Part shown: one piece after another, positions 19,571 to 53,415 of the stretch | Layout of the letters: each line of letters opens with the position of its first letter | How positions within the stretch are numbered: position 1 is the stretch's first letter | Virus record (IMG/VR): IMGVR_UViG_3300036944_000273 | Coordinates: 938-64,937 of that record | Reading direction: 5' to 3' (one strand) | DNA from: a virus | Lineage: Duplodnaviria; Caudoviricetes | Length of the DNA: 64,000 nt | Made by a program: the position numbers and the translations under genes | Notes under the pieces: model-generated | The model's database searches: none | What the model saw: the letters and a program-made list of their open reading frames with translations, nothing else | What the model was told of the DNA's origin: nothing

Positions 19571-20296
19571 ATGGCTAACTACACAATTACATATTCTCCG
19601 AAAGATAATGGATGGACTTCGTACCATTCTTATTATCCGGATTGGATGGTTACAATGAATAACTCTCTTTATACATTTAAGGGAGGAAATTTGTATAAGC
19701 ATTATAGTAATGAAACACGTAATAGTTATTATGGAGTTTTATATCCATCTACAATAACTACTATATTTAATAACGAGCCTTCTCAAACTAAGCAATTTAA
19801 AACTATTGCTACTAACTCAACTACTGCCTGGGAAACAGCTGTGCTATCTGATCAAGGTGAGGGCTATATTAATTCTGATTACTATGCATTAAAAGAAGGT
19901 ACATGGTACGCTTATATCAGAAGAAATCCTGATGATAACAGTTTGGCTATGATTTCAGCTCAAGGCGTAGGTAATGTTACAGCTTACGCATCTAACGTAC
20001 TTACATTTGCATTTAATATTGGTGATATTGTCAGTGATGGCGATAGTTTATATATGTTAAATGGAGCTAATATTCAGTTTTGCGGTGTTATAACAGCTCA
20101 CACAGATAATACAATAACTATTAATAGAACAGGAGCAATTCCAATTAATGGCAGCTTTATTCTTTATCTTAAGAGCAGCGTTGCTGAGTCAACTCCAACA
20201 AGAGGAACATACCTTGAGGTGCAGTTTACTAATAATGATACAGAGTATACCGAAATGTACATGACTTCATCTGAGGTATTCAAATCATATTCTTAA
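19571..20296 (+). CDS. Muzzle/stabilization protein C-terminal part expressed as a separate gene
   Basis: TITYSPKDNGWTSYHSYYPD..LYTFKGGNLYKH..K.FKTI..KEGTWYAYI..RGTYL, the usual C-terminal segment of crAss-like muzzle proteins. Confidence 0.7.
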   Translation: MANYTITYSPKDNGWTSYHSYYPDWMVTMNNSLYTFKGGNLYKHYSNETRNSYYGVLYPSTITTIFNNEPSQTKQFKTIATNSTTAWETAVLSDQGEGYINSDYYALKEGTWYAYIRRNPDDNSLAMISAQGVGNVTAYASNVLTFAFNIGDIVSDGDSLYMLNGANIQFCGVITAHTDNTITINRTGAIPINGSFILYLKSSVAESTPTRGTYLEVQFTNNDTEYTEMYMTSSEVFKSYS

Positions 20297-21548: not shown

Positions 21549-23042
21549 ATGGCAGAATACGCAGGATATGTTGCATCGCCCCCTATAAACTACGGAGAGA
21601 TATCTGACGGATTGGTTAGTAATATTATTGCTATTGACCAAGCAAAAAGAGAACAAGATAGAAAGACGCAAGAATCTTTTGATAAATATTTTGATGAGAA
21701 CGTAAAGACTATAAAAGATTTTGAATATTCTAAAAGTCCTACGTTTAATAGTAAGGTTGTGCCTCTTGCCGATCAATATAAAAAGGTTATTTATAATGCA
21801 AAGAAAACTGGATCAAAGCAACAAGTTGGTTTAGTTACATCAAATGCAAAGACTAGCATTAACAACATCAATCAAGCTATGAAATCTATTAGCGATAATG
21901 TTGGTATTATTGAAAAAACTACCTTGGAGGGCAAAAACTCTGCAATGGGAAATGTTTATTCAGATTATTATGCAGATATTGTTAGCCCTAATAATGGTGA
22001 ATTTACTGTTTTAGATGACGGAACAACAGCATATACTTTATACAATAAAGATGGCAAGATTGAGTCAACTAATAGTATGTTTGATCCTGCTACATTGACA
22101 AAACCTGCTCCTTTTCTTGATGCTCCTGTAGATTATGAAAAGAATTTAACTGATTGGGTAGCAAGTATTGGCACAGTTCAAGATGAGCAAGGACGTATTA
22201 CTACAGTTAGCCCTGCATTAAATCCAGCGTTTGGTAATGCTAAACAAACAAAGATTGCAGAATTAACATCTACTCCGAGAAATGCCGCACGTTTTTTATC
22301 ATCTGTTGCGGGATATAAAGGATTTAAAAATGAAGAATCAAGACAAGAATTAATTGCAAGTGGAGTTCCCAAAGAAAAGTTAATTCAAGTATCATTGGTT
22401 GATGGTATCCCTCAGCCCATTTTAACTGACACACAAAAGAAGGCTGCAAAGGCAATTGCAGCTCAACAAATTGACCAACGTGTTGGTATTAAAAAGATGG
22501 AAGATGAGGAGCCAAGAGATCCTTTTGCATATTATGATTACAAAAAACAACAAGAGGACGCTGCAAAAATGGCTCCTAAAATAAAAGCTGTTAAAAATGC
22601 TGAGGCAATTTATAATGCTTTTAGAACTGCAGGTGAAGCCGGAAAGATGGGTCAAATTCCCGAATTCTCTCCATTAAAAGAAGCAGGCCGATTAAAAGGA
22701 TGGACTAATTTATCGGTATCAAATGTTGGAGGTGAAGTGGTTGTGTATGGAAAGGCTAAAGGTGCTAAAAAATCATCTGATTTAAAAGAACTAGCTAGAT
22801 TAAGTTCTCCTGGCGAAGTTTATGCATTCTTAACTGGTAAAGAAAATATTATTGATGCAAAATCTGATTTTGATGTAACAAAAGATTATATGCAATATAA
22901 TCAACCATCTGAACCTGAGAAACAACAGGAAAATGTTGTAACTTTATCCCAAATTAAGTCACTAAGCACTCAGCAAAGAGGTGGACTTAACGAGCAGGAG
23001 TATGCTGCGTTCTTAAAAAGTCAAGGTTATACAGTAAAATAG
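21549..23042 (+). CDS. Internal virion (ejection) protein 2
   Basis: 497 aa helical protein between ejection genes. Confidence 0.55.
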   Translation: MAEYAGYVASPPINYGEISDGLVSNIIAIDQAKREQDRKTQESFDKYFDENVKTIKDFEYSKSPTFNSKVVPLADQYKKVIYNAKKTGSKQQVGLVTSNAKTSINNINQAMKSISDNVGIIEKTTLEGKNSAMGNVYSDYYADIVSPNNGEFTVLDDGTTAYTLYNKDGKIESTNSMFDPATLTKPAPFLDAPVDYEKNLTDWVASIGTVQDEQGRITTVSPALNPAFGNAKQTKIAELTSTPRNAARFLSSVAGYKGFKNEESRQELIASGVPKEKLIQVSLVDGIPQPILTDTQKKAAKAIAAQQIDQRVGIKKMEDEEPRDPFAYYDYKKQQEDAAKMAPKIKAVKNAEAIYNAFRTAGEAGKMGQIPEFSPLKEAGRLKGWTNLSVSNVGGEVVVYGKAKGAKKSSDLKELARLSSPGEVYAFLTGKENIIDAKSDFDVTKDYMQYNQPSEPEKQQENVVTLSQIKSLSTQQRGGLNEQEYAAFLKSQGYTVK

Positions 23043-23048
23043 CAAAAG

Positions 23049-26000
23049 ATGTCAGATCAAATACCTCAATTACCAGTACCTTCAGCCGAAGAAATTAAAA
23101 AGTTTAAAGCTAAAGTGCCATCGGTAGGGGTTTCAGGTGGAACGGGTTTACCTATTCCATCATCCGAGGATATAAAAAAATTCAAGGCACCTGTAGTTGA
23201 AAAAAAAAAGCCTATGGCTTCTCCTTCAGTTTTGGAGAAACCAGCTGCTTCATCGGTTGCCGGATTACGTCCAATGGCACCTTTATCGGTATCTACTTCA
23301 ACTAAAAAGCCTGAGCAATTAGTTGCACCAACACCTGTCGCTAAACCAGTTCAAGCACCCACACAAAACGTGAGTGTGACTGGCAGCCAAGGCAAGCTTT
23401 TAATTCCTGATCCAATCCAAAAGGTGCCAGCTGTTAAAGAAACAGTTACATCTTTTAAGAAAGTACCTGTATTTAAATCAGATAAAGACTTAGCTTTGAA
23501 TCCAGAGCTAATGCTTAAGGCTATCTTTAAAAATGAGCAGGGTACACTAGGCAAGACGACAAGCGTAAAAGCTTCAGGCGGTATGCGTAACACGGCATCT
23601 GGTACATATCAGATGACTGATGAAACCAAGAGAGACGTATACAATAGAAACAAAGAATTTCAAAACCAATTCGGTAATTATAATTCATTCTTAAAAGAGT
23701 TTAACAAGAACCCTTCATTGGAATTTGAGGCTGCGTTGAGCCACATGACTGACTTGGTTAAGCAGTACGGCAAGTATGCTATGGCTGCTTGGTACTCACC
23801 TAGCCATGCTGCTCAAGCGGCAAATGGTAATGTGCGTGCACTAAATACTGTACCAAGAAAAGATGCTGGAAATAAAATGACCGTTAAGGCATATTATGAC
23901 AATGCAATCAATGAGTACAAAAGATTATCCAAAGGCTTTAAAGGAGAGAAAGACTTTGTTAAAGTTCCTGTAAAAACAGAAGTTATCAAACAACCTGCGG
24001 TGAACGTGCCTTCTCTTGAGAAGTTTAACGTGTTAAACCCTAACTGGTATGGTGGGCCTGTAACTAATGAAGCAAAGCCTGCTGTTGCACCTAAGAAAGT
24101 TGGGGCAATCGAAGATATCAATAACAGATTCTTGTCTTCTGCTTCTAATCTTGCTAGTGGTATTGCTGGCTTGCCTAATGCTGCTAACAAAGCAGGGTTA
24201 ATGATGACTGCCAAACTTCTTGGCATTGACGATGAGTATAATGCTCTACCTGTTCAAGCAAAAAAAGAAGTTGACGCAGTCGTGTCAAATATTGCACAAA
24301 AGGGGGGCGTTCCCTCAGGAGTTGTTTCTAGCCAAGTACAAGATTATTTTATTAGAAAGAGCGATGAGTTTCTTGAGAATACAAATAAGTCTGATAAATA
24401 TATTAATGAAAGATTTGGGGATTTCTTTAAAGCACCATCTGTAGATAAAGCTACTGATTTGTTTCTTGAGATTCCTAGAGGTTTTGCTGGTAGCTTGCCG
24501 TACATGATAAACCCATTACTTGGGGCTATCAGTGCTGGTAGCGAGCAGTACAATAAAGATATAAAAGAAGCAGATGGCAAGTTAGGTTGGGGGCAATTAG
24601 TTAACGCTGGTGTTACTGGTGTCAGCGAATATTATATTGAGAAAATTACAAAGGGTATTTTAAACCGTTCAGTTGCAAGTGCTATTGGTGTCCCAAAAGT
24701 TGCTAAAGAATTAGCTGATGGATTTGTTAAGTCTGTGTTGAAAGACGTTGGAATGGAGTCAGCCGGTGAAGGATTAACTCAATTGATTCAGTCAGTGAGT
24801 AATGATATCACAAAGGGCAACGAGATTGACTGGGTAAAGACTGCTAATGAAACACTCGATGCAGCTATAACTGGTGCTGGTATTGCTGGCGGCATGAGAA
24901 CAACTGGTGCTGGTATTGGATACCTAGCCAAGAAAGTTATGCCTCCATCTGAAAAGAATGAGATTGATCGTAACACTAGAGCTATCATGGACCTCAATAG
25001 CAAAAAAGGTCCTGACAATTCACCTGAGGTGAATGCTGTTATCGATAGCAGAGTAAAAGAATTAGACGATGTCAATAAGAATATTATCAATACTAACATT
25101 GATAAAGTTAAGTCTATGTCAGACGATCAACTTAAAGAGATCGTAAACATCGATAAAGGTATTAGTGATATTTATACACAGCGTGATGCTGTTGTTTCTA
25201 ATGAAAATCTTAACGATGAAGAAAAACAATCATTGTTAGATTATTTAAAATCCAGAGCTACAAAATTAAACGAACAAAAAGATGCCATTCAAAAGCAAAC
25301 AACAAGTGAAGTTCCTATTCAGCCAGAAGCCGGAGCTGGCGTCCAAGTGGCGGAAGGAGAATCCCAAGCAAAACCTCAAGTCGCTGCCAAAGAAGGTCAA
25401 GAAGTAGTAGACATTACAGCCAGTATACCTAAGCAAGATTTGCCTAAGGTGATGGACTTGGTTGGCAAAATTGAGAAAGGCGAGCAAGCGTCTTCTCCTG
25501 AAGACTTGCAGACACAGCAGAACTATGCCAAGGAAGTGGAAGCACTTCTAGCTAAACGTGCTGCTGATGTTAAAGCTGTGGAGTATAGCTTTGATGTTAA
25601 TACTCCTACTAAATTTAACGAATCAGAAATGCCTGAGGTGTCAGTTGATAACATCGACTGGGAAGCAAGCGGTATGGGTAATGTGTATGATGCAATCGAC
25701 TCATATGGTGGCATCAATGATATCACAGTTGTTGACGTTCGTGGCAAGAATGCAGATGGATTGTATGAGGCAAAAGTTCGCGTTAAAGGACAAGATGTGT
25801 CTCGCGAAGGTGTTGTTTTACTTAAGGATCCGAACGCTCAACAGAAGCCACGTGTGGCTCGCAAAAAGAACGTATCGCCTGAGTTCTTGGCAGTAGAAAA
25901 AGTATTGTCAGACAATGGCGTGTATCCTTCATTTGATAACGTAGAAGAAATTGTTAAGATTACTAAAGGTAAGGCTGGCAACATTACTCAGCAAGACGTT

Positions 26001-29000
26001 CAAGATGTAGTTAAGGTATATAATAAGAAAGCAAAAGCAATTGCTGATGCATTTAATAAACAAAAGCCAAATGAAAATATACAAGCTAAAAAGCCTAGAG
26101 CCGATGTCGCTGCCGAGGAAACTACGCAGGGGACACAACCTGAAGCTGGAGCAACTGAGCAGCCTGCACAAGCTATTAGTAAAAGGCAAGAAATCAAAAG
26201 CTCTCTCGAAAACCTTAAAGATGTCGGCCTCCTAAGGTCAGCTATAACTGGCAAGAAAGATATATCTCAAGGAGAGATAGATTCTCAAATGGCACTAACA
26301 GATGCCATGGCTAATGTATGGAGAGAGACAACTGGCCGTGATGACTTCTATGAAAACTTCTTTAATGACGTTAGTCAAGGAGACATAGACAGTATTATGG
26401 AGAAGGGTGGCGTATTGTTCCAAAACATAGAGCTACCACAACGTCCACTTACTCGTGTTTCGTTAGGCGTGTTTGACTTGCTTGAGTTTAAGAAGATGGA
26501 GGGTCAAGAGGTATCTATTAATTCAGTTAAAGACTTAGCTAGAACAAGAGGCAAGCAAATCGAGAAAGATTTAATGCAGACTGTTCTTGACTACGATAAA
26601 TATAAGGAAGCTAAAAAGATTTCATACGACGAGTTTAAGAGCGACGTAGAGATGCAAGTAATGAAGCTTGAGAAGATTGTAACTTCTTCTTATGCTTCAT
26701 ATGGTGCTGACAATCTTGGAGATGATGGTGTATATGGTGATGCAAATACTATTATATACAATAGTCCAATAGATCATGGTGAGTATGGCCACTTTAGAGG
26801 AGACTTTAAATATAGTGGTATTAAAAAAAATATAAGCGATTTTGATAATACTGAATGGGAAATAAAACAAATCCCAGGAACTGATCAATATGTAGCTGTT
26901 GATAAGTCAATGCCTGATAATGTTTCTCAAGATCAATTATCAAACTATATTGGTACAGCAGGGAATAAGGAGTCTGTTGAAAGATGGGTGAGTCAACGTA
27001 ACTTATGGCAAATGACAAATGAGCAGGCACGTCAAGGAGACGTGAACGTAGGCTTATTTGGTCATACACGTGTTTGGTATGACGAAGGCAATCCATATTA
27101 CTTAGCTGAACTTCAAAGTGATTACTTCCAAAAGAACGACCCAAATGATTTGTATGCTAGTCAGGTAGATAGAGAAGAAGGAATAGATTATGCGTATGAA
27201 AAATATAATAAAGAACATCGTCCTGAAGTTTTAAAAGAAATAAAAAAGGCATTAAATGTAAAAATAGAAATTGAAAATAGGGGTAAAGGTGAAGAAAAGT
27301 ATTCTTGGGCAAAAGCATATGTATACAAGGATAATGGCGATAAATTAATAGAATCTCCAGTATATGAGCAATTGAGAGCTGATGGAGGTAGTATGGATAA
27401 CGAAGATTGGGATGAATTTTTACTTAATGAAGTTGGTGGTACTTTGTTATTGCAACGGCCATTTAACAGCGAAAAAACCAAAAAAGAGATTGAGGAATTA
27501 TTAAATAATGATCCAGAATCGTTGCGTACTATTGGATATAGATATAAAAGTTTAGATAAAACTTATACGGAAGCTAAATATGAATTAATTCAACAATACA
27601 GAAACGAGTACACTAAAAACGAAATAGAAAAAATTAAGAACTCTGAGAAGGGCGTATCAATGCTTAAGCAATTTGTGGCATCTCAGAAAGTTCATGAGCT
27701 TAGATTACTTCGTGAGTCATTCCGTAACGCTGCACAAGAAGGAGCTGAGACTTTACGTTTCCCTACACCTTTTACACTTGCTGTAATTGAAGGTTATGTG
27801 AATAAGCCAGGAGAAAATGGAGCTCCGTATGAAATTGTTTCTGGGAATAGCGACAGATTATACCAAGGCGACATCATTGATTATGGTGGGACTGAGATGG
27901 TTGTTGTGGGTCAAGATGGGCTTAGGATAATGGTAGCACCTAGAGATGAAGTGCAGATATATGACTACTATGATTATGTAAACAGCGAAGTAGAATATTT
28001 TTTAGATGAAACTTTATCTTATTTAAGAAGAGATTTTAATGATGTTAATAATATAACAGAATCAGATATTGAGAATTTTGATTTTGAAAATTTAGATTGG
28101 CAAGCAAGTGACACTCAAGATATATTATTAGCTGCTATTAATGATTCAGAGACAGGAATTATATCTTTAAAAGATGTAGAAGAAAAAATTGAAGATGCAA
28201 TTAGAAGCAGTTTTGATAATTTATCTGTTGGTGATTTATTTATGGGAGATGAAATATATTCAGATGGTGATCAAACATATTACGTTATAGAAAGAAGAAA
28301 CCAAGTAGAGACTTTTTATCAGCCAGATGAATATGATGACACTACTGATCCTGATCTATACGAAGCTAATCTAGGCGATGCACAAAAAACAGTTGTCAAT
28401 AAGTATAAGGAGCTTAATAAGATATTTAAAAAAATGCGTCCCGATGCTGAGGTTATTACCGATGACAACGGCATGCAATGGCTTGAGACTAAACTTACTC
28501 CTGAGGATGCCAACAACCCTCTTATTGCGTTCCAAGAAGAAGGCGGTAATATTAAAGGTGCTGTTGACTTCTCGAATGATAATAAGGCATCTGTGTACAT
28601 GTTCGATGGTGCAGACATCACAACATTGGCTCACGAAATGTCAGGCCACTTGGGCCGTAGATTCTTAGAGCAACTGTCAAGTGTAGACGAAGACTTTGCT
28701 AAAGACTATGAGGCGGCAAAAGAATGGGCGGGCGTTAGAGATAATCAATGGACAATTGCTGCAGAAGAGAAATGGGCTCGTGGATTTGAGAAATACTTAA
28801 GAGATGGCAAGGCTCCAACAAAAGCCTTGAAGTCTGTGTTTGATAATCTGCGTGATTGGTTGAAGAATATCTATAAGTATATCAAAGGTAGTAGCATCGA
28901 CATAGAGTTAACTCCTCAGATAACCAAAGTATTTGACAACTTGTTAGGAGCTCGTAGCGAAGACGTAGGCATTAAAGAACTACCTGGCTATGATCGAATG

Positions 29001-32000
29001 ATGGGTGAGGTAGAAGGCATTGTCGATAAGTCATTTAAGCGTGGCGTTTCTTACAATCAAACTTTAGAAAATGCTCTTAGTTATCTATCTACATCAAAAG
29101 TGTATGAGGATGCAACAGACATCCAGCGTGAGGCAATGGTGCGTGAGATTCGTAAGATGTTTAAGCAGAAAGAAAAGAAAGCTCCGACTGTACAAAAGAT
29201 CTTAGGCCAAGAGCCAACATTGACAACTGTTGTTATTGACGAAGCAAAAGAAATAAACAAAAGACTCAAGGCTCTTGATGCTGCGGAGACAGCAGGAAGA
29301 AAGAAGGGATACAAAGAAGGAACAAAGGAATCAGAAGATGCAAAGAAAGATATCATTGATATCGTCAGATCAATGAAGGTTAATAACAAGATTTCTGGTT
29401 CACAGTTTAAGGCTATTGTTAATGCACTTAAAGGTAACCTCCTAAATCCTGTAATCCGTAAGCGTGTTGAAGAGCGTATTGCAAAGATTATTAATCGGGC
29501 AAACTATGCTGATCAATTAGAGCGTGCCAATAAACTTAGCAAAGCAATTAAAAAAGCTTCTAAGTCTAATACATTGCCAGCTAACATAGCTAAGATGGCT
29601 AGAAACTTTGGTAAGATTAAGCCAAATTCTGTGCCAAATATTGAAGAGTATATGGACATGGCAACTTTGGTTTATGACTCTATTGGTAAGCCTATGCGTA
29701 GCATTGCATCAGAAGATATGATCAATGAATACACAGAACTTAGATTGCAAGAAGCTAGAGATGCAAAAAATGATGTCTTGGCAGAGCAATATAAGGCACT
29801 TGTTGATGGTGGTATTTTACCTTCAGGTATGCCATTAAAAGAAATCCAAGATTATATTTTAAGTGTTGAGCAAAAGAAAGCACAAGAAATAAGCAAGGAA
29901 AAAGAAAAAGAAATGCGTGCCAACCTAAAGGCAGTATTTGAAGCTTTATCTGACATATCCAATACAATTGTTACAGAAGGTATAAATCCATTAACAGGGG
30001 AGGAAATAGAGGTTAGTGCTGAAGATAAGAAGATGATACAAGAGTTCACTAATATGGACTTGGATAAACTATCAATTCCATCTGCTTACCGTGCTCAAGA
30101 AGCACTAATGAACTACGTTATCAATGGTAAAAAGTTTGGCATGAGATCAATCTTGGCTAAGTACCAAGGACAAGAAAATGTTAAGATTGCTGTTGATAAA
30201 GGGTTGAAAGCTGCTGATTTTAGATGGGCAGTAGGTGGTAGCTGGTGGGGTTCACGCAAGTGGGCTAAAGAAGTTGAGTCAATACCAGGATTATTTACTT
30301 GGTTATTTAGAGGTAGAAATCGTGGTGGCGAAATGATGAAGCTTATGGGACTTGATGAATTCATGGCTGGTGCTGCCGAAGGAAAGCTTAAGCGGATTGA
30401 GGCTGAGAATGAATACATTGCTAAGTTCTTAAATAAGAAGCCTAACGGCAAGCGTTTTAATAACATCAACAATACATATGAGAGATTAGTGTATGCTTAT
30501 TTATCTCGTACGGTTGATGGAACTCCAGAGCAAAAGCAAGACGAGTTTGATCGACGCAAGAGAATTCTTTTACAAAACGTGCAAGCAATGTATCAATCAA
30601 GAAATAAAGAATTGATTGAAGAAGGTAAAGTATTGGAGAAAGAATTAAATAAAGTCAAGAATGCAAAGACTTCATCTGAGATGCAAGGTAAGTTTGATAA
30701 GATAAATGAGGAGGCTGTACAGTTTATCTCAAATAAATTTGATCAAAACTTTGACTTTGTTGAAGATGTAGCAGAAGGGGTATACAACTTGATACTAAAC
30801 AAAGACGAGCTATATACTCCTGACATGTTTAGAAGTATTGTAGAGAAAGATGTCAATGTAGCTGAAGCTCAGGAGACTGTCGACTTGCCTTTTGATTTAT
30901 TAAACAAGAAGCCTGCAGGCACAATGATGGAGAACAAACGTATCCAGAATTTACCAGGCTACGACGTTGAGAATAAAGATGCATCTAATGTAGAGAAGAT
31001 TCTTAGATTAGACTTTGATGCTAGTTCATTTAATGCACTAGAAAAGGCACTTGTTGACGCAAATACAGCGGAGGCAGTACAGAAGTATAGTGCATTTGTT
31101 AATTCAAAAGACTTTATTAAGTTATTTGATAACATTAAGGACCAGCAATTATTTAAGGAGATTGTAAACTTCTATATAAATAACGAGCGTGGTAAGATTG
31201 GTTATAAGTCTGATTGGAAAGCTGTACAGAACTTTACAAACAGAATTAAATCTTTATCTACATATCGTGCACTAGGATCACTTACTGCAATTGTTAAGCA
31301 GTCTGCATCAGCAGCAATTAACACGGCAATTAACTTATCTAATGATCCATATGCAATGAAGCAAGTTGCTAATGCGATGTTCTTTAATTCAGACATCCAA
31401 GATTTTATTAGCAGAAATAGAAGTGAGATTAATCTACGTGGTGCGGAGTCAACAGCCGACATTAAATCTGCTGAAAAATTAATCCGTGATTCAAAATATC
31501 AGACAGTTAATGATGTATTAGATACTGTTGATAAACTAGGTAGATTTCAAATGAAGTCTTTGGCAGCAGGTGACGTGCCTTTGGCTCGTGCTTCTTGGTT
31601 TGGTTATTATATACACGCTCTTAAAAAAGAAGGCAAGCCTTATAATAATATAGACTGGGCTACAGAAAATATTGACAAAGATGCTCTTGCTTATGCTAAC
31701 AGAGAGGTGTCTCTTAATCAAAATGCTAGTATGCCATCTACTATGGGTAGAGCTTTTGCTAGTAAGAACCCGGCTACTAAACTTATTATGGCTTATGTAT
31801 TCCCATACACAAGTTTCTTGTTTAATGCTAAGAGTAGATTGAAGACTGACATTACGGTGTTAACTAGTAAGTTGGCTACTGCGGAAGACAAGCAAGCTGC
31901 AGGCCGATCAATGGTTGCGACATTAGCTGAGTTACCTGCATATATAATGATGCAAACAGCTATCAACTATGGACTAGTTACATTAGCTAATATGTTCCTT

Positions 32001-32495
32001 GGATACGAAGAAGATGAGGAAGATGAGAAATTAAGATTAAAGAGATACTCTGAGTTGGCGGTAACAAGAATCATAACAGACTTATTATCACCGACTCCAA
32101 ACGTAGGTGACGTTGCTACTGTTGCTGCATTCAATGCATTACTAACAAAGATGCAAGAGGAACCAGAAATGGATCAGGAAGATAAGATGGATATGTTTAA
32201 GCTTTTTGAAAGCAAGCCAGACTCAATGGCTGGGGCAATGGCTGAGTTGTTATTGCAACCAATTGCATCGACAGGTAGACGTGCTGCTGATATCTATACT
32301 ACAATTGACATGGCTGTCGGAGACTATTATGTAACCGATACTGGCAAGGAGATAGAGTTTACAGAAGAAAATAAGAAGTTCTTAAAGATAGCTGCTACTA
32401 TGCAAGTAATGGGTAGCTTGAACTTACTACCATCGGAAGCTGAGTCGCTGGCCAAGAAGATGGTCAAGACGATCGAAAAGAGTGCTAAGGAATAA
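23049..32495 (+). CDS. Giant ejection / large polyvalent protein with lysozyme-like domain
   Basis: 3148 aa; transglycosylase-like AIFKNEQG..ASGTYQM..AAWYS (~23510-23920); GHTRV..LAELQSD; zincin-like TLAHEMSGH..EEKWARGFEKY (~28630). Confidence 0.8.
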   Translation: MSDQIPQLPVPSAEEIKKFKAKVPSVGVSGGTGLPIPSSEDIKKFKAPVVEKKKPMASPSVLEKPAASSVAGLRPMAPLSVSTSTKKPEQLVAPTPVAKPVQAPTQNVSVTGSQGKLLIPDPIQKVPAVKETVTSFKKVPVFKSDKDLALNPELMLKAIFKNEQGTLGKTTSVKASGGMRNTASGTYQMTDETKRDVYNRNKEFQNQFGNYNSFLKEFNKNPSLEFEAALSHMTDLVKQYGKYAMAAWYSPSHAAQAANGNVRALNTVPRKDAGNKMTVKAYYDNAINEYKRLSKGFKGEKDFVKVPVKTEVIKQPAVNVPSLEKFNVLNPNWYGGPVTNEAKPAVAPKKVGAIEDINNRFLSSASNLASGIAGLPNAANKAGLMMTAKLLGIDDEYNALPVQAKKEVDAVVSNIAQKGGVPSGVVSSQVQDYFIRKSDEFLENTNKSDKYINERFGDFFKAPSVDKATDLFLEIPRGFAGSLPYMINPLLGAISAGSEQYNKDIKEADGKLGWGQLVNAGVTGVSEYYIEKITKGILNRSVASAIGVPKVAKELADGFVKSVLKDVGMESAGEGLTQLIQSVSNDITKGNEIDWVKTANETLDAAITGAGIAGGMRTTGAGIGYLAKKVMPPSEKNEIDRNTRAIMDLNSKKGPDNSPEVNAVIDSRVKELDDVNKNIINTNIDKVKSMSDDQLKEIVNIDKGISDIYTQRDAVVSNENLNDEEKQSLLDYLKSRATKLNEQKDAIQKQTTSEVPIQPEAGAGVQVAEGESQAKPQVAAKEGQEVVDITASIPKQDLPKVMDLVGKIEKGEQASSPEDLQTQQNYAKEVEALLAKRAADVKAVEYSFDVNTPTKFNESEMPEVSVDNIDWEASGMGNVYDAIDSYGGINDITVVDVRGKNADGLYEAKVRVKGQDVSREGVVLLKDPNAQQKPRVARKKNVSPEFLAVEKVLSDNGVYPSFDNVEEIVKITKGKAGNITQQDVQDVVKVYNKKAKAIADAFNKQKPNENIQAKKPRADVAAEETTQGTQPEAGATEQPAQAISKRQEIKSSLENLKDVGLLRSAITGKKDISQGEIDSQMALTDAMANVWRETTGRDDFYENFFNDVSQGDIDSIMEKGGVLFQNIELPQRPLTRVSLGVFDLLEFKKMEGQEVSINSVKDLARTRGKQIEKDLMQTVLDYDKYKEAKKISYDEFKSDVEMQVMKLEKIVTSSYASYGADNLGDDGVYGDANTIIYNSPIDHGEYGHFRGDFKYSGIKKNISDFDNTEWEIKQIPGTDQYVAVDKSMPDNVSQDQLSNYIGTAGNKESVERWVSQRNLWQMTNEQARQGDVNVGLFGHTRVWYDEGNPYYLAELQSDYFQKNDPNDLYASQVDREEGIDYAYEKYNKEHRPEVLKEIKKALNVKIEIENRGKGEEKYSWAKAYVYKDNGDKLIESPVYEQLRADGGSMDNEDWDEFLLNEVGGTLLLQRPFNSEKTKKEIEELLNNDPESLRTIGYRYKSLDKTYTEAKYELIQQYRNEYTKNEIEKIKNSEKGVSMLKQFVASQKVHELRLLRESFRNAAQEGAETLRFPTPFTLAVIEGYVNKPGENGAPYEIVSGNSDRLYQGDIIDYGGTEMVVVGQDGLRIMVAPRDEVQIYDYYDYVNSEVEYFLDETLSYLRRDFNDVNNITESDIENFDFENLDWQASDTQDILLAAINDSETGIISLKDVEEKIEDAIRSSFDNLSVGDLFMGDEIYSDGDQTYYVIERRNQVETFYQPDEYDDTTDPDLYEANLGDAQKTVVNKYKELNKIFKKMRPDAEVITDDNGMQWLETKLTPEDANNPLIAFQEEGGNIKGAVDFSNDNKASVYMFDGADITTLAHEMSGHLGRRFLEQLSSVDEDFAKDYEAAKEWAGVRDNQWTIAAEEKWARGFEKYLRDGKAPTKALKSVFDNLRDWLKNIYKYIKGSSIDIELTPQITKVFDNLLGARSEDVGIKELPGYDRMMGEVEGIVDKSFKRGVSYNQTLENALSYLSTSKVYEDATDIQREAMVREIRKMFKQKEKKAPTVQKILGQEPTLTTVVIDEAKEINKRLKALDAAETAGRKKGYKEGTKESEDAKKDIIDIVRSMKVNNKISGSQFKAIVNALKGNLLNPVIRKRVEERIAKIINRANYADQLERANKLSKAIKKASKSNTLPANIAKMARNFGKIKPNSVPNIEEYMDMATLVYDSIGKPMRSIASEDMINEYTELRLQEARDAKNDVLAEQYKALVDGGILPSGMPLKEIQDYILSVEQKKAQEISKEKEKEMRANLKAVFEALSDISNTIVTEGINPLTGEEIEVSAEDKKMIQEFTNMDLDKLSIPSAYRAQEALMNYVINGKKFGMRSILAKYQGQENVKIAVDKGLKAADFRWAVGGSWWGSRKWAKEVESIPGLFTWLFRGRNRGGEMMKLMGLDEFMAGAAEGKLKRIEAENEYIAKFLNKKPNGKRFNNINNTYERLVYAYLSRTVDGTPEQKQDEFDRRKRILLQNVQAMYQSRNKELIEEGKVLEKELNKVKNAKTSSEMQGKFDKINEEAVQFISNKFDQNFDFVEDVAEGVYNLILNKDELYTPDMFRSIVEKDVNVAEAQETVDLPFDLLNKKPAGTMMENKRIQNLPGYDVENKDASNVEKILRLDFDASSFNALEKALVDANTAEAVQKYSAFVNSKDFIKLFDNIKDQQLFKEIVNFYINNERGKIGYKSDWKAVQNFTNRIKSLSTYRALGSLTAIVKQSASAAINTAINLSNDPYAMKQVANAMFFNSDIQDFISRNRSEINLRGAESTADIKSAEKLIRDSKYQTVNDVLDTVDKLGRFQMKSLAAGDVPLARASWFGYYIHALKKEGKPYNNIDWATENIDKDALAYANREVSLNQNASMPSTMGRAFASKNPATKLIMAYVFPYTSFLFNAKSRLKTDITVLTSKLATAEDKQAAGRSMVATLAELPAYIMMQTAINYGLVTLANMFLGYEEDEEDEKLRLKRYSELAVTRIITDLLSPTPNVGDVATVAAFNALLTKMQEEPEMDQEDKMDMFKLFESKPDSMAGAMAELLLQPIASTGRRAADIYTTIDMAVGDYYVTDTGKEIEFTEENKKFLKIAATMQVMGSLNLLPSEAESLAKKMVKTIEKSAKE
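23200..23243 (+). promoter_or_regulatory. Candidate -1 ribosomal frameshift signal
   Basis: A10 run containing in-frame A_AAA_AAG (23204-23210); hairpin TGG-C-TTCTCC/GGAGAA-A-CCA at 23215-23243. Confidence 0.65.
25282..25407 (+). CDS. Nested out-of-frame small basic protein MPFKSKQQVKFLFSQKPELASKWRKENPKQNLKSLPKKVKK
   Basis: +1 frame inside the giant gene; A-rich upstream; resembles the MPFKS..Q..(P)E.A..W small phage protein family. Confidence 0.6.
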   Translation: MPFKSKQQVKFLFSQKPELASKWRKENPKQNLKSLPKKVKK

Positions 32496-34711: not shown

Positions 34712-34721
34712 ATTTTTTTTT

Positions 34722-51867: not shown

Positions 51868-53415
51868 ATGATAGTTAAAAATGTAGAGTCTGGAGAAATA
51901 GCTAGACAGAAATTAATCAAAGGGGTTGACACTGTTGCAAATGCAGTGGGTTCAACTTTAGGTGCGAGAGGTCGGACTGTGTTGATGGAATCAGAACAAC
52001 ACATTGGTGGTATCACAGTTACAAAAGATGGAGTTACTGTAAGTAAAGGTATTAATCTTTTAGATCCAACCGAGAACCTAGCGGTGATGATCATGCGTGA
52101 GGCATCGGAGAAGACTGCCAACTCGGCAGGCGATGGCACGACCACGAGCATGGTGCTGGCACAGGCCATCATCCATGAGGCGATGGGACAGATTAAGCCG
52201 AGCGATAACTTAACTCAAGTATTGCGTGACATTCAAGAGGCGAGCATTGAGGTGCTGGCTAAGTTGGACGAGATGTCGGTTGAGATTACAGACGAGAAGC
52301 TTGAGTCAGTTGCTACAATCTCTGCGAACGGGGATGAGGACACGGGTGCAATTATTGCAGATGCGTACAGTAAGGTGGGGCTGACCGGAGTGGTGACAGT
52401 TGAGCCGTCAAAGGATGCGTTGACATACTCGGAGATTATTAGTGGGATGAAGATAGACAGGGGCTTTGCCAGTAAGTATTTTGTTACTGACCACAAGAAG
52501 CAAGAGTGCGTGCTAGATGACCCATACATTTTGGTGACCGACCAGCCAATTAGTCATATCAATGACATATACCCAATACTTGAGTTTATTCTTGATGGGA
52601 ACAGGTCACTATTAATTGTGGGCGAGATTGAGGAGAATGCGTTGAACACGCTGAACGCTAACAAGATTAAGGCTAAGTTAAAAGTGTGCTCTATCATCCC
52701 ACCGCAGTTTGGCTACAAGAAGCATCAGTTGATGCAAGACATTGCTCATGCGACGGGGGCTAAGTACTTCAGCGAGCAGACGGGTGACAACCTTGCCTTG
52801 GTGACAATTGACGACCTAGGCCGTGCTAAGAAGGTGATCAGTGGTAGGTTCAATACGCTGCTAAGAGATCCGGGTCAGCAGGGTGACGTGGAGGCGAGAG
52901 TAGAAGAGCTGCAGGAGCAGTTAAAGGTGGAGGAGAGTGCAATCGAGAAAGACTTCTTAAAAGAAAGGATCGCTAATCTTGGTGGTGGCGTGGCAGTAAT
53001 TTATGTTGGGGCTCAGTCAGACATTGAGCAGAAGGAGAAGAAGGACCGGGTGGACGATGCGGTGTGTGCTGTGAGGGCTGCACTAGAAGAGGGCATTCTG
53101 CCAGGTGGTGGCGTAGCACTAAAAGATATCTCAGAGTCAATGGCGATAAAGAACAAAGGAGCAGCTATATTAATGCATGCACTGGTGAGCCCAATGAAGA
53201 AGATTGTTCAGAATGCAGGTGGGTCAATAGAAGATATCGCTGGCTGCTCTAAGGAGGGCGTGGGCATAAACGTGGTGACCATGGCTAAAGCTAACATGAT
53301 GGAGGCTGGAATCATCGACCCGACAAAGGTGACCAAGGAGAGTTTAAGGAATGCTGTTAGCGTTGCTACAACTTTACTTTCAACAGATACAGTCATAACT
53401 AACATCAGAGCATAA
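51868..53415 (+). CDS. groEL: Phage-encoded chaperonin GroEL
   Basis: TLGARGR, TKDGVTV, AGDGTTT, GM.IDRG, KERIANL.GGVAVI, VDDA..A.RAALEEGILPGGG, GIIDPTKV; no GGM tail; TAGATTTG box at 51841. Confidence 0.97.
   Translation: MIVKNVESGEIARQKLIKGVDTVANAVGSTLGARGRTVLMESEQHIGGITVTKDGVTVSKGINLLDPTENLAVMIMREASEKTANSAGDGTTTSMVLAQAIIHEAMGQIKPSDNLTQVLRDIQEASIEVLAKLDEMSVEITDEKLESVATISANGDEDTGAIIADAYSKVGLTGVVTVEPSKDALTYSEIISGMKIDRGFASKYFVTDHKKQECVLDDPYILVTDQPISHINDIYPILEFILDGNRSLLIVGEIEENALNTLNANKIKAKLKVCSIIPPQFGYKKHQLMQDIAHATGAKYFSEQTGDNLALVTIDDLGRAKKVISGRFNTLLRDPGQQGDVEARVEELQEQLKVEESAIEKDFLKERIANLGGGVAVIYVGAQSDIEQKEKKDRVDDAVCAVRAALEEGILPGGGVALKDISESMAIKNKGAAILMHALVSPMKKIVQNAGGSIEDIAGCSKEGVGINVVTMAKANMMEAGIIDPTKVTKESLRNAVSVATTLLSTDTVITNIRA

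Follow-up and report, generated by a model that had tools for sequence, protein, structure and literature searches.

A putative recoding site near the start of a giant virion gene

The 64,000-nucleotide stretch of viral DNA analyzed here (the window; nearly all of the 64,937-bp IMG/VR virus record IMGVR_UViG_3300036944_000273) carries a giant open reading frame (ORF) of 3148 amino acids, which near codon 50 contains a run of 10 adenines (A10; positions 23200 to 23209, plus strand). Our preferred explanation, to which we assign a probability of about 0.58, is that this run is a programmed recoding site that yields, probably by slippage of RNA polymerase, an 85-amino-acid protein beside the giant one. 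That the A10 run serves recoding in one way or another appears highly probable. Related genomes indicate that this site is kept in a large group of podophage-like viruses, relatives of phages of Flavobacteriia.

According to the model that we favor, most transcripts or ribosomes would read through the site to give the 3148-amino-acid virion protein, and a fraction would move to the −1 frame. As the most likely cause, RNA polymerase would slip on the A10/T10 hybrid and insert an extra A into the mRNA, which would bring the −1 tail in frame; ribosomal −1 slippage on the A_AAA_AAG heptamer is a possible contributor. The shifted product of 85 amino acids would consist of an N-terminal module with two repeats, followed by KKK and a cationic tail of 31 amino acids rich in aromatic residues and glycine. 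From the data presented below, we infer both that slippage is the mechanism and that the two products are made in a set ratio.

In the window, the letters G-A10-G occupy positions 23199 to 23210. Codons 51 to 54 of the giant ORF (23049 to 32495) read GAA AAA AAA AAG (E51 K52 K53 K54), and the heptamer A_AAA_AAG at 23204 to 23210 lies in frame with it, exactly as had been stated in an initial annotation made from the DNA letters and their ORFs. Translation of the −1 frame from position 23207 gives KAYGFSFSFGETSCFIGCRITSNGTFIGIYFN and ends at a TAA stop codon (23303 to 23305), so that the predicted product comprises 54 + 31 = 85 amino acids and terminates in IGIYFN, again in agreement with the initial annotation. 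The −1-frame ORF, i.e., KKK plus the aromatic/Gly tail (AYGFSF...IGIYFN), spans 23201 to 23305 on the plus strand. It has no start codon of its own, because a TGA stop codon (23198 to 23200) overlapping the first base of the A10 run shuts the −1 frame upstream. A profile built from 32 tails of the family described below (alignment A4) matched the window tail with 40.1 bits (E = 3.4e-11). The A10 run is the only run of at least 10 A or T in the 64-kb window, the next longest being a T9 at 34713; under independent, identically distributed bases, 0.48 runs of at least 10 A would be expected.

The A-run is present in nearly all related genes

A search with residues 1 to 600 of the giant protein as the query returned 39 homologues of 2039 to 3385 amino acids. 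Strikingly, EKKKP and the "linker" after it are conserved in many of these homologues, even where unrelated N-terminal modules precede them. For comparison at the DNA level, 51 IMG/VR loci were available, 25 of which include the 5′ end of the giant gene; all 25 have a single A-run of 10 or 12 at this place. From the remaining 26 records, 20 were scanned whole, and 6 were left out as near-duplicates according to their ORFs. An A10 or A11 run on the strand of the gene, just upstream of the matched part, was present in 18 of the 20 scanned records, and the ORF at these 18 runs stays open for at least 503 codons downstream. Conservation of the slippery site in homologous genes, a check proposed in the initial annotation, was thus evident: 44 of 46 related records examined (window included) keep an A10 to A12 run toward the 5′ end of the giant gene, and these represent 40 unique sequences. 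The A10 run is usually unique within its record, and the giant ORF is in frame in every IMG/VR-type record that carries the run (44/44, window included).

Searches of phage genomes with the 5′ and 3′ parts of the gene (blastn and tblastn) found no DNA of closer relatives. Likewise, searches of viral contigs with the single protein and with N-terminal alignments, and searches of metagenome contigs and genome contigs, gave no confirmed close relatives. Since no DNA of the window's own clade was retrieved, the codon-level tests described below rest on more distant clades.

The −1 frame downstream of the run bears the marks of a coding sequence

Downstream of the run, the median open length of the −1 frame is 34 codons, and 37 of the 40 sites reach at least 18. 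The background value for −1 openness is a median of 4 codons, with 6.9% reaching at least 18 (47,102 codons); within stretches of the same ORFs that are rich in S, T, P, A, G, Q, and V, this fraction is 27%. When codons were redrawn with the zero-frame protein held fixed, the −1 frame was still open in a median of 5% of the trials per site. The −1 peptides contain 297 F, Y, and W residues, compared to 203 expected after synonymous reshuffling. In alignment A4, they share a pattern of [YF]G[FIV]x[FW], followed by [YWF][FY][FIL]G[FYWI], often [WY]xFG[IF][FI], and a basic end.

Conservation of the aromatic −1 peptide and suppression of synonymous variation were further checks proposed at the outset, and both turned out positive. 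Among 19 clades with less than 50% identity, the −1 peptides reached a mean pairwise score of 33.8, versus 20.1 ± 0.34 for shuffled sequences (z = 40); translation of the same bases in the zero and +1 frames gave z values of 5.7 and 10.3, respectively. In 17 related pairs, the differences per site at zero-frame codon positions 1, 2, and 3 were 0.18, 0.28, and 0.22 within the overlap versus 0.33, 0.23, and 0.51 downstream, and within the overlap, the differences peak at the third codon position as read in the −1 frame. Within 346 differences from 20 pairs, changes silent only in the −1 frame were enriched 1.52-fold; for changes silent only in the zero frame, the factor was 1.03. Taken as a comparative signature, these substitutions show the predicted −1 peptide to be under purifying selection and synonymous change in the main frame to be suppressed.

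At 37 of the 40 sites, the interval from the preceding −1 stop to the run contains no ATG, GTG, or TTG, and at 11 sites, including that of the window, this stop overlaps the beginning of the run. An independent translation start for the −1 ORF was therefore rejected; lacking its own start codon, the −1 peptide is reachable solely from the zero frame.

For the window's own clade, the evidence for dual coding consists of protein-level conservation and one substitution. Conservation of residues 51 to 85 is 0.82 in this clade, compared to 0.56 for the N-terminal module, 0.54 for the next linker, and 0.64 for the domain at residues 150 to 300. Two near-identical contigs from other sequencing runs cover the site, with seven differences each, no indel, and A10 kept. 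The sole change that either shows within 23200 to 23305, 23236 A>G in a low-depth contig, replaces E63 by G in the zero frame and is silent in the −1 frame.

Run length is kept, whereas codon phase is free

The 40 unique sites carry A10 in 34 cases, A12 in 5, and A11 in 1. Relative to the zero frame, the run lies in phase 2 at 28 sites, in phase 1 at 7, and in phase 0 at 5; the extra A's are contributed by the preceding codon (one or two, from GTA, TTA, TCA, GAA, or CAA) or by the following codon (one). Elsewhere in the same giant ORFs, AAA makes up 61% of the lysine codons, yet none of the 48 other KKK triplets is all-AAA, where ∼11 would be expected. Such slippery runs are thus avoided in the rest of the gene but fixed at this site, and by this measure of codon usage, the A-run is selected as a run.

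Bacterial RNA polymerase holds a hybrid of 9 to 10 bp, and slippage in vivo is highly efficient at runs of 9 A or T, according to Atkins et al. 2016 (PMC5009743). With A10 in the window and A10 to A12 at all 40 sites, the runs found here are as long as this hybrid, as in programmed transcriptional slippage sites of the type of Thermus dnaX and Shigella spa13/mxiE, and they occur in every codon phase and without a conserved downstream structure. A length of 10 in all three phases fits a signal that is read by RNA polymerase. Transcriptional slippage, which the initial annotation had mentioned as an aside to its proposal of a −1 ribosomal frameshift, turned out to describe the data best, since run length is kept and phase is free.

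The main competing explanation is dnaX-type ribosomal −1 frameshifting, in which ribosomes slip on A_AAA_AAG (23204 to 23210), stimulated by a 3′ hairpin, and the mRNA itself is unslipped. It would give an identical product, the window has the in-frame X_XXY_YYZ heptamer, and every run in the family includes an in-phase A_AAA_AAN heptamer. The hairpin described initially is also present in the predicted fold: it occupies 23215 to 23243, 4 nucleotides 3′ of the heptamer, and consists of the arms TGGCTTCTCC and GGAGAAACCA, which form 9 bp with a C/A mismatch around a 9-nucleotide loop. The substitution at 23236 retains its pair as G-U. However, the hairpin is weak and its spacer short. It is predicted in a 60-nucleotide fold (−15.7 kcal/mol, z = −1.26); in a 51-nucleotide fold, only a 6-bp core forms (−14.3 kcal/mol, z = −1.55), and 16 of 200 shuffled sequences fold equally well. 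No stable, conserved structure was found 5 to 8 nucleotides downstream: across the 40 sites, the mean z was −0.53, with z below −2 at a single site, and no Rfam family, and hence no frameshift element, was detected in 23000 to 23500. The hairpin was accordingly rejected as a conserved stimulator and probably lies outside the signal. Furthermore, a heptamer would suffice for ribosomal slippage, yet 34 of the 40 sites keep exactly A10, every one of the three phases is represented, and most sites read A_AAA_AAA, not the more shift-prone A_AAA_AAG. Of the initially proposed dnaX-type frameshift, the conserved recoding site has therefore withstood comparison, and the stem-loop architecture has not. 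We consider a purely ribosomal origin of the −1 product possible but unlikely.

One-frame variants and A-runs in cultured phages

When 1.84 billion proteins were searched with the A4 profile, 10 matches of 67 to 115 amino acids were obtained, in each of which the match lies at the C-terminal end. These 10 proteins comprise an N-terminal module, KKK, and a tail in a single frame, and they may be assembly or run-length errors or else rare variants.

Among cultured phages, gp72 of Elemovirus elemoD 13-5B has its A10 run at codon 57 (Elemovirus record NC_055855.1, 41734 to 41743), and its tail matched the A4 profile with 42.4 bits (E = 5.9e-12). The first 420 nucleotides of the giant gene are at least 95% identical in all 68 Elemovirus records. 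Some Elemovirus genome records (H66 and H67; MT497103.1 and MT497081.1) begin at nucleotide 170 of this gene, exactly where the A-run starts, which suggests that assembly or read coverage breaks at the homopolymer. Cellulophaga phage phi38:1 (Pervagoviridae) has A10 at codon 33 of gp101 (KC821614.1, 67520 to 67529), followed by a 24-amino-acid tail with two aromatic-Gly units, and MW202828.1 has A11 and a divergent tail. In the Pachyviridae phages phi13:2 (locus L106, NC_021803.1 positions 66118 to 66393), phi18:3 (L107), and phi46:3 (L108), the run is A9 as deposited, and the N-terminal module is out of frame with the giant ORF. Because of this A9, the deposited annotation lists the N-terminal module as a short gene of its own, "structural" or hypothetical, and lets the giant gene start from an internal ATG. 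In these genomes, one more A is required for the giant frame and two more for the aromatic tail; either the homopolymer was miscalled, or the main product truly depends on slippage.

The one-frame variants, which are consistent with the addition of one A or the loss of two, the A9 genomes of phi13:2, phi18:3, and phi46:3, and the run lengths of 9, 10, 11, and 12 found among lineages could also be explained by a contingency tract at the DNA level, i.e., a mutational hot spot at A10 by which phage genomes switch between the giant and a short-only product. However, the giant ORF is in frame in all 44 run-bearing records, the variants are singletons on one or two contigs, the contigs from other sequencing runs have no indel, a phage that fails to encode the giant virion protein would probably not be viable, and the conserved −1 peptide must be regularly expressed to remain selected. 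We therefore regard such switching as improbable.

Across loci L002 to L073, as well as between phi13:2 and phi46:3, unrelated two-repeat N-terminal modules precede the same DNA 3′ of the A-run. The run has the look of a junction for the exchange of N-terminal cassettes. That there is no recoding at all, the run being kept for KKK or as a recombination junction of this kind and the open −1 frame arising as a by-product of linker composition, is the least probable explanation: phi13:2 and phi46:3 do differ in their modules with identical DNA 3′ of the run, and S/T-rich linkers do give stop-poor −1 frames (27% open for at least 18 codons), but none of the 48 KKK triplets elsewhere is all-AAA, and the order-specific conservation (z = 40 versus 5.7), the codon-position pattern, and the excess of −1-silent changes exceed what composition alone would give.

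Features of the predicted short protein

The N-terminal module common to both products (23070 to 23189, plus strand) contains two copies of a 14-amino-acid motif, LPVPSAEEIKKFKA at 23070 to 23111 and LPIPSSEDIKKFKA at 23148 to 23189, with an internal-repeat score of z = 11.5 in the window. In relatives, a tandem duplication of a short motif was found in 30 of 37 complete modules (22 to 79 amino acids), and the motif differs between clades. The tails consist of 13.8% F, 12.7% S, and 11.8% G, with a mean net charge of +4. In 37 of 39 tails, K or R is present among the last four residues, and the final residue is aromatic in only 1 of 39; the window tail ends in ...IYFN. An outer-membrane beta-signal, to which the end of the tail had initially been likened, was rejected on account of these K/R-rich ends and the near absence of terminal F, W, or Y.

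The other part of the initial description, shared N-terminal repeats followed by a strand-like aromatic/Gly tail, is in line with an AlphaFold2 model of P0044, a one-frame variant from another clade. This model, computed from the single sequence (mean predicted local distance difference test [pLDDT] score of 72), comprises four helices (pLDDT 78 to 86), a disordered KKK linker, and three strands of low confidence (pLDDT 56 to 59). Comparison of the tails with Pfam gave no match below E = 0.1 (0/32), and the best hit of the tail profile among PDB sequences, to antibody heavy chains, was not significant (E = 0.42). The tail is predicted to form a small beta-meander. As a guess, the short protein presumably docks via the shared N-terminal module wherever the giant protein docks, and the tail might then bind membrane or nucleic acid.

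The giant protein and its gene neighborhood

The zero-frame product of the giant ORF (P0001; 23049 to 32495, plus strand) is encoded by the final gene of a structural block; upstream of this gene, PHROG matches identified genes for terminase, portal, and virion proteins. A Pfam match to the C-terminal domain of the crAss muzzle protein (19571 to 20296, E = 9.1e-14) was the sole crAss-specific signal. The nearest named terminases are those of Flavobacterium Elemovirus, of Cellulophaga phages of Pachyviridae and Pervagoviridae, and of MW202828.1. In GenBank, the giant proteins of relatives are noted as virion structural proteins, for phi18:3 from tandem mass spectrometry. The label of ejection gene or protein that the initial annotation had given to the giant ORF is a putative one.

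The giant protein had neither a Pfam family match nor a sequence relative in PDB, and its only PHROG match was to phrog_9880 (unknown function) at residues 1827 to 2094. Within this region, an HExxH motif is present (HEMSGH, residues 1862 to 1867; 28632 to 28649 of the window), and judging from this motif, the region may be a zincin-like protease domain, although a Pfam match is absent. Residues 185 to 192 (GTYQMTDE; 23601 to 23624) and their flanks are invariant or nearly so among homologues; we take this segment to resemble a motif of the lytic-transglycosylase type, for which a Pfam match is likewise absent. At 51868 to 53415, the window also encodes a full-length chaperonin of the Cpn60/GroEL type (Pfam PF00118, E = 1.1e-52).

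Discussion

Several points weigh against RNA polymerase slippage at the A10 run, or against recoding as such. Recoding is predicted here from sequence, and a search for RNA sequencing runs that contain this stretch returned none. The sites and pairs compared are phylogenetically related, so that z-scores and counts overstate their independence. S/T-rich linkers with T-ending codons favor −1 frames that are poor in stops and rich in F, Y, C, and W, and after synonymous reshuffling, a median of 5% of the trials per site still have an open −1 frame, with the aromatic content lowered only from 297 to 203. Two complete relatives, G008 (L074, 6890 to 10501) and G009 (L030, 138 to 5963), have neither the run nor a match to the tail profile, and in G018, an A11 run is followed by an immediate −1 stop. 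All 10 one-frame proteins are singletons on one or two contigs, all but one of them on short contigs. The A4 profile misses the short or divergent tails of phi38:1, phi13:2, and MW202828.1, whose likeness to the family was judged by eye. Finally, the window holds a classical A_AAA_AAG with a hairpin 4 nucleotides downstream, and runs of at least 9 all hold an in-phase A_AAA_AAA, which makes ribosomal slippage a candidate mechanism. Apart from their weight in this question, G008 and G009 are natural "knock-outs" that could reveal a replacement for the short protein.

A wider reading, which we put forward only tentatively and hold to be rather unlikely as a whole, would treat the A-run as both a three-way switch and a junction of cassettes, universal among Flavobacteriia podophages and located in their giant virion genes. 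With a single start codon, RNA polymerase slippage would then give rise to the giant protein and also to small proteins of a new class, in which an exchangeable N-terminal cassette for docking is joined to a cationic, aromatic tail that forms a beta-meander. This tail would insert into the host envelope or bind nucleic acid and act during ejection or assembly, and in Pachyviridae, with A9 as deposited, the giant protein itself would be slippage dependent.

A close parallel to RNA polymerase slippage at the A10 run is dnaX of Thermus thermophilus (tau/gamma). As described in PMC5009743, this system also employs a homopolymer of at least 9 (A9/T9) without need for RNA structure, and its slipped mRNAs likewise yield a truncated protein with a common N terminus in a ratio set by the run. 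In contrast to Thermus dnaX, whose shifted frames stop almost immediately, the family of the window has a conserved peptide of 20 to 50 amino acids, and here the gene is a giant phage virion gene, with a run of 10 near codon 50. Escherichia coli dnaX (A_AAA_AAG plus an upstream Shine-Dalgarno sequence and a 3′ stem-loop) has in common with the window the identical in-frame heptamer and a truncated product with a common N terminus; unlike in E. coli dnaX, a 3′ stimulatory structure is not conserved here, run length and not heptamer phase is kept, and most relatives have A_AAA_AAA.

In the potyviral P3N-PIPO (polymerase slippage at GA6), as presented in PMC5009743 and PMC7618844, a short ORF without a start codon inside a very long polyprotein ORF is similarly reached by one added A, the product joins an N-terminal part to a tail from the other frame, and synonymous variation in the zero frame is suppressed. 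P3N-PIPO, however, concerns the replicase of an RNA virus on A6, whereas here a DNA phage and presumably a multisubunit or phage RNA polymerase would act on A10.

Frameshifting in a phage structural gene is represented by 10A/10B of T7. In lambda, the tail chaperone proteins gpG and gpGT resemble the present case, as described in PMC5009743, in being two proteins of a phage structural module with a common N terminus and a fixed ratio. The lambda shift is ribosomal and extends the protein; here, 3148 amino acids would be reduced to 85, and the gene is not that of a tail chaperone. No description of the site was found in the literature covered, which excluded supplements and subscription journals.

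If true, our interpretation would add a widespread and strongly conserved recoding event to phage biology, together with an unannotated family of small proteins made from the largest structural gene. It would also account for the two ORFs, one short and one long, into which this gene is divided in deposited Cellulophaga phage genomes. Cultured phages from three named groups have an A-run at this place: A10 in Elemovirus and in phi38:1 of Pervagoviridae, and A9 as deposited in phi13:2, phi18:3, and phi46:3 of Pachyviridae. As cultured hosts and phages exist, the proposed recoding is directly testable; transcriptomes and proteomes of phi38:1 infections are reported to have been published (Howard-Varona et al., ISME J 2017 and 2018). 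Because length is conserved and phase is not, the A-run would offer a natural case in which transcriptional can be separated from translational slippage.

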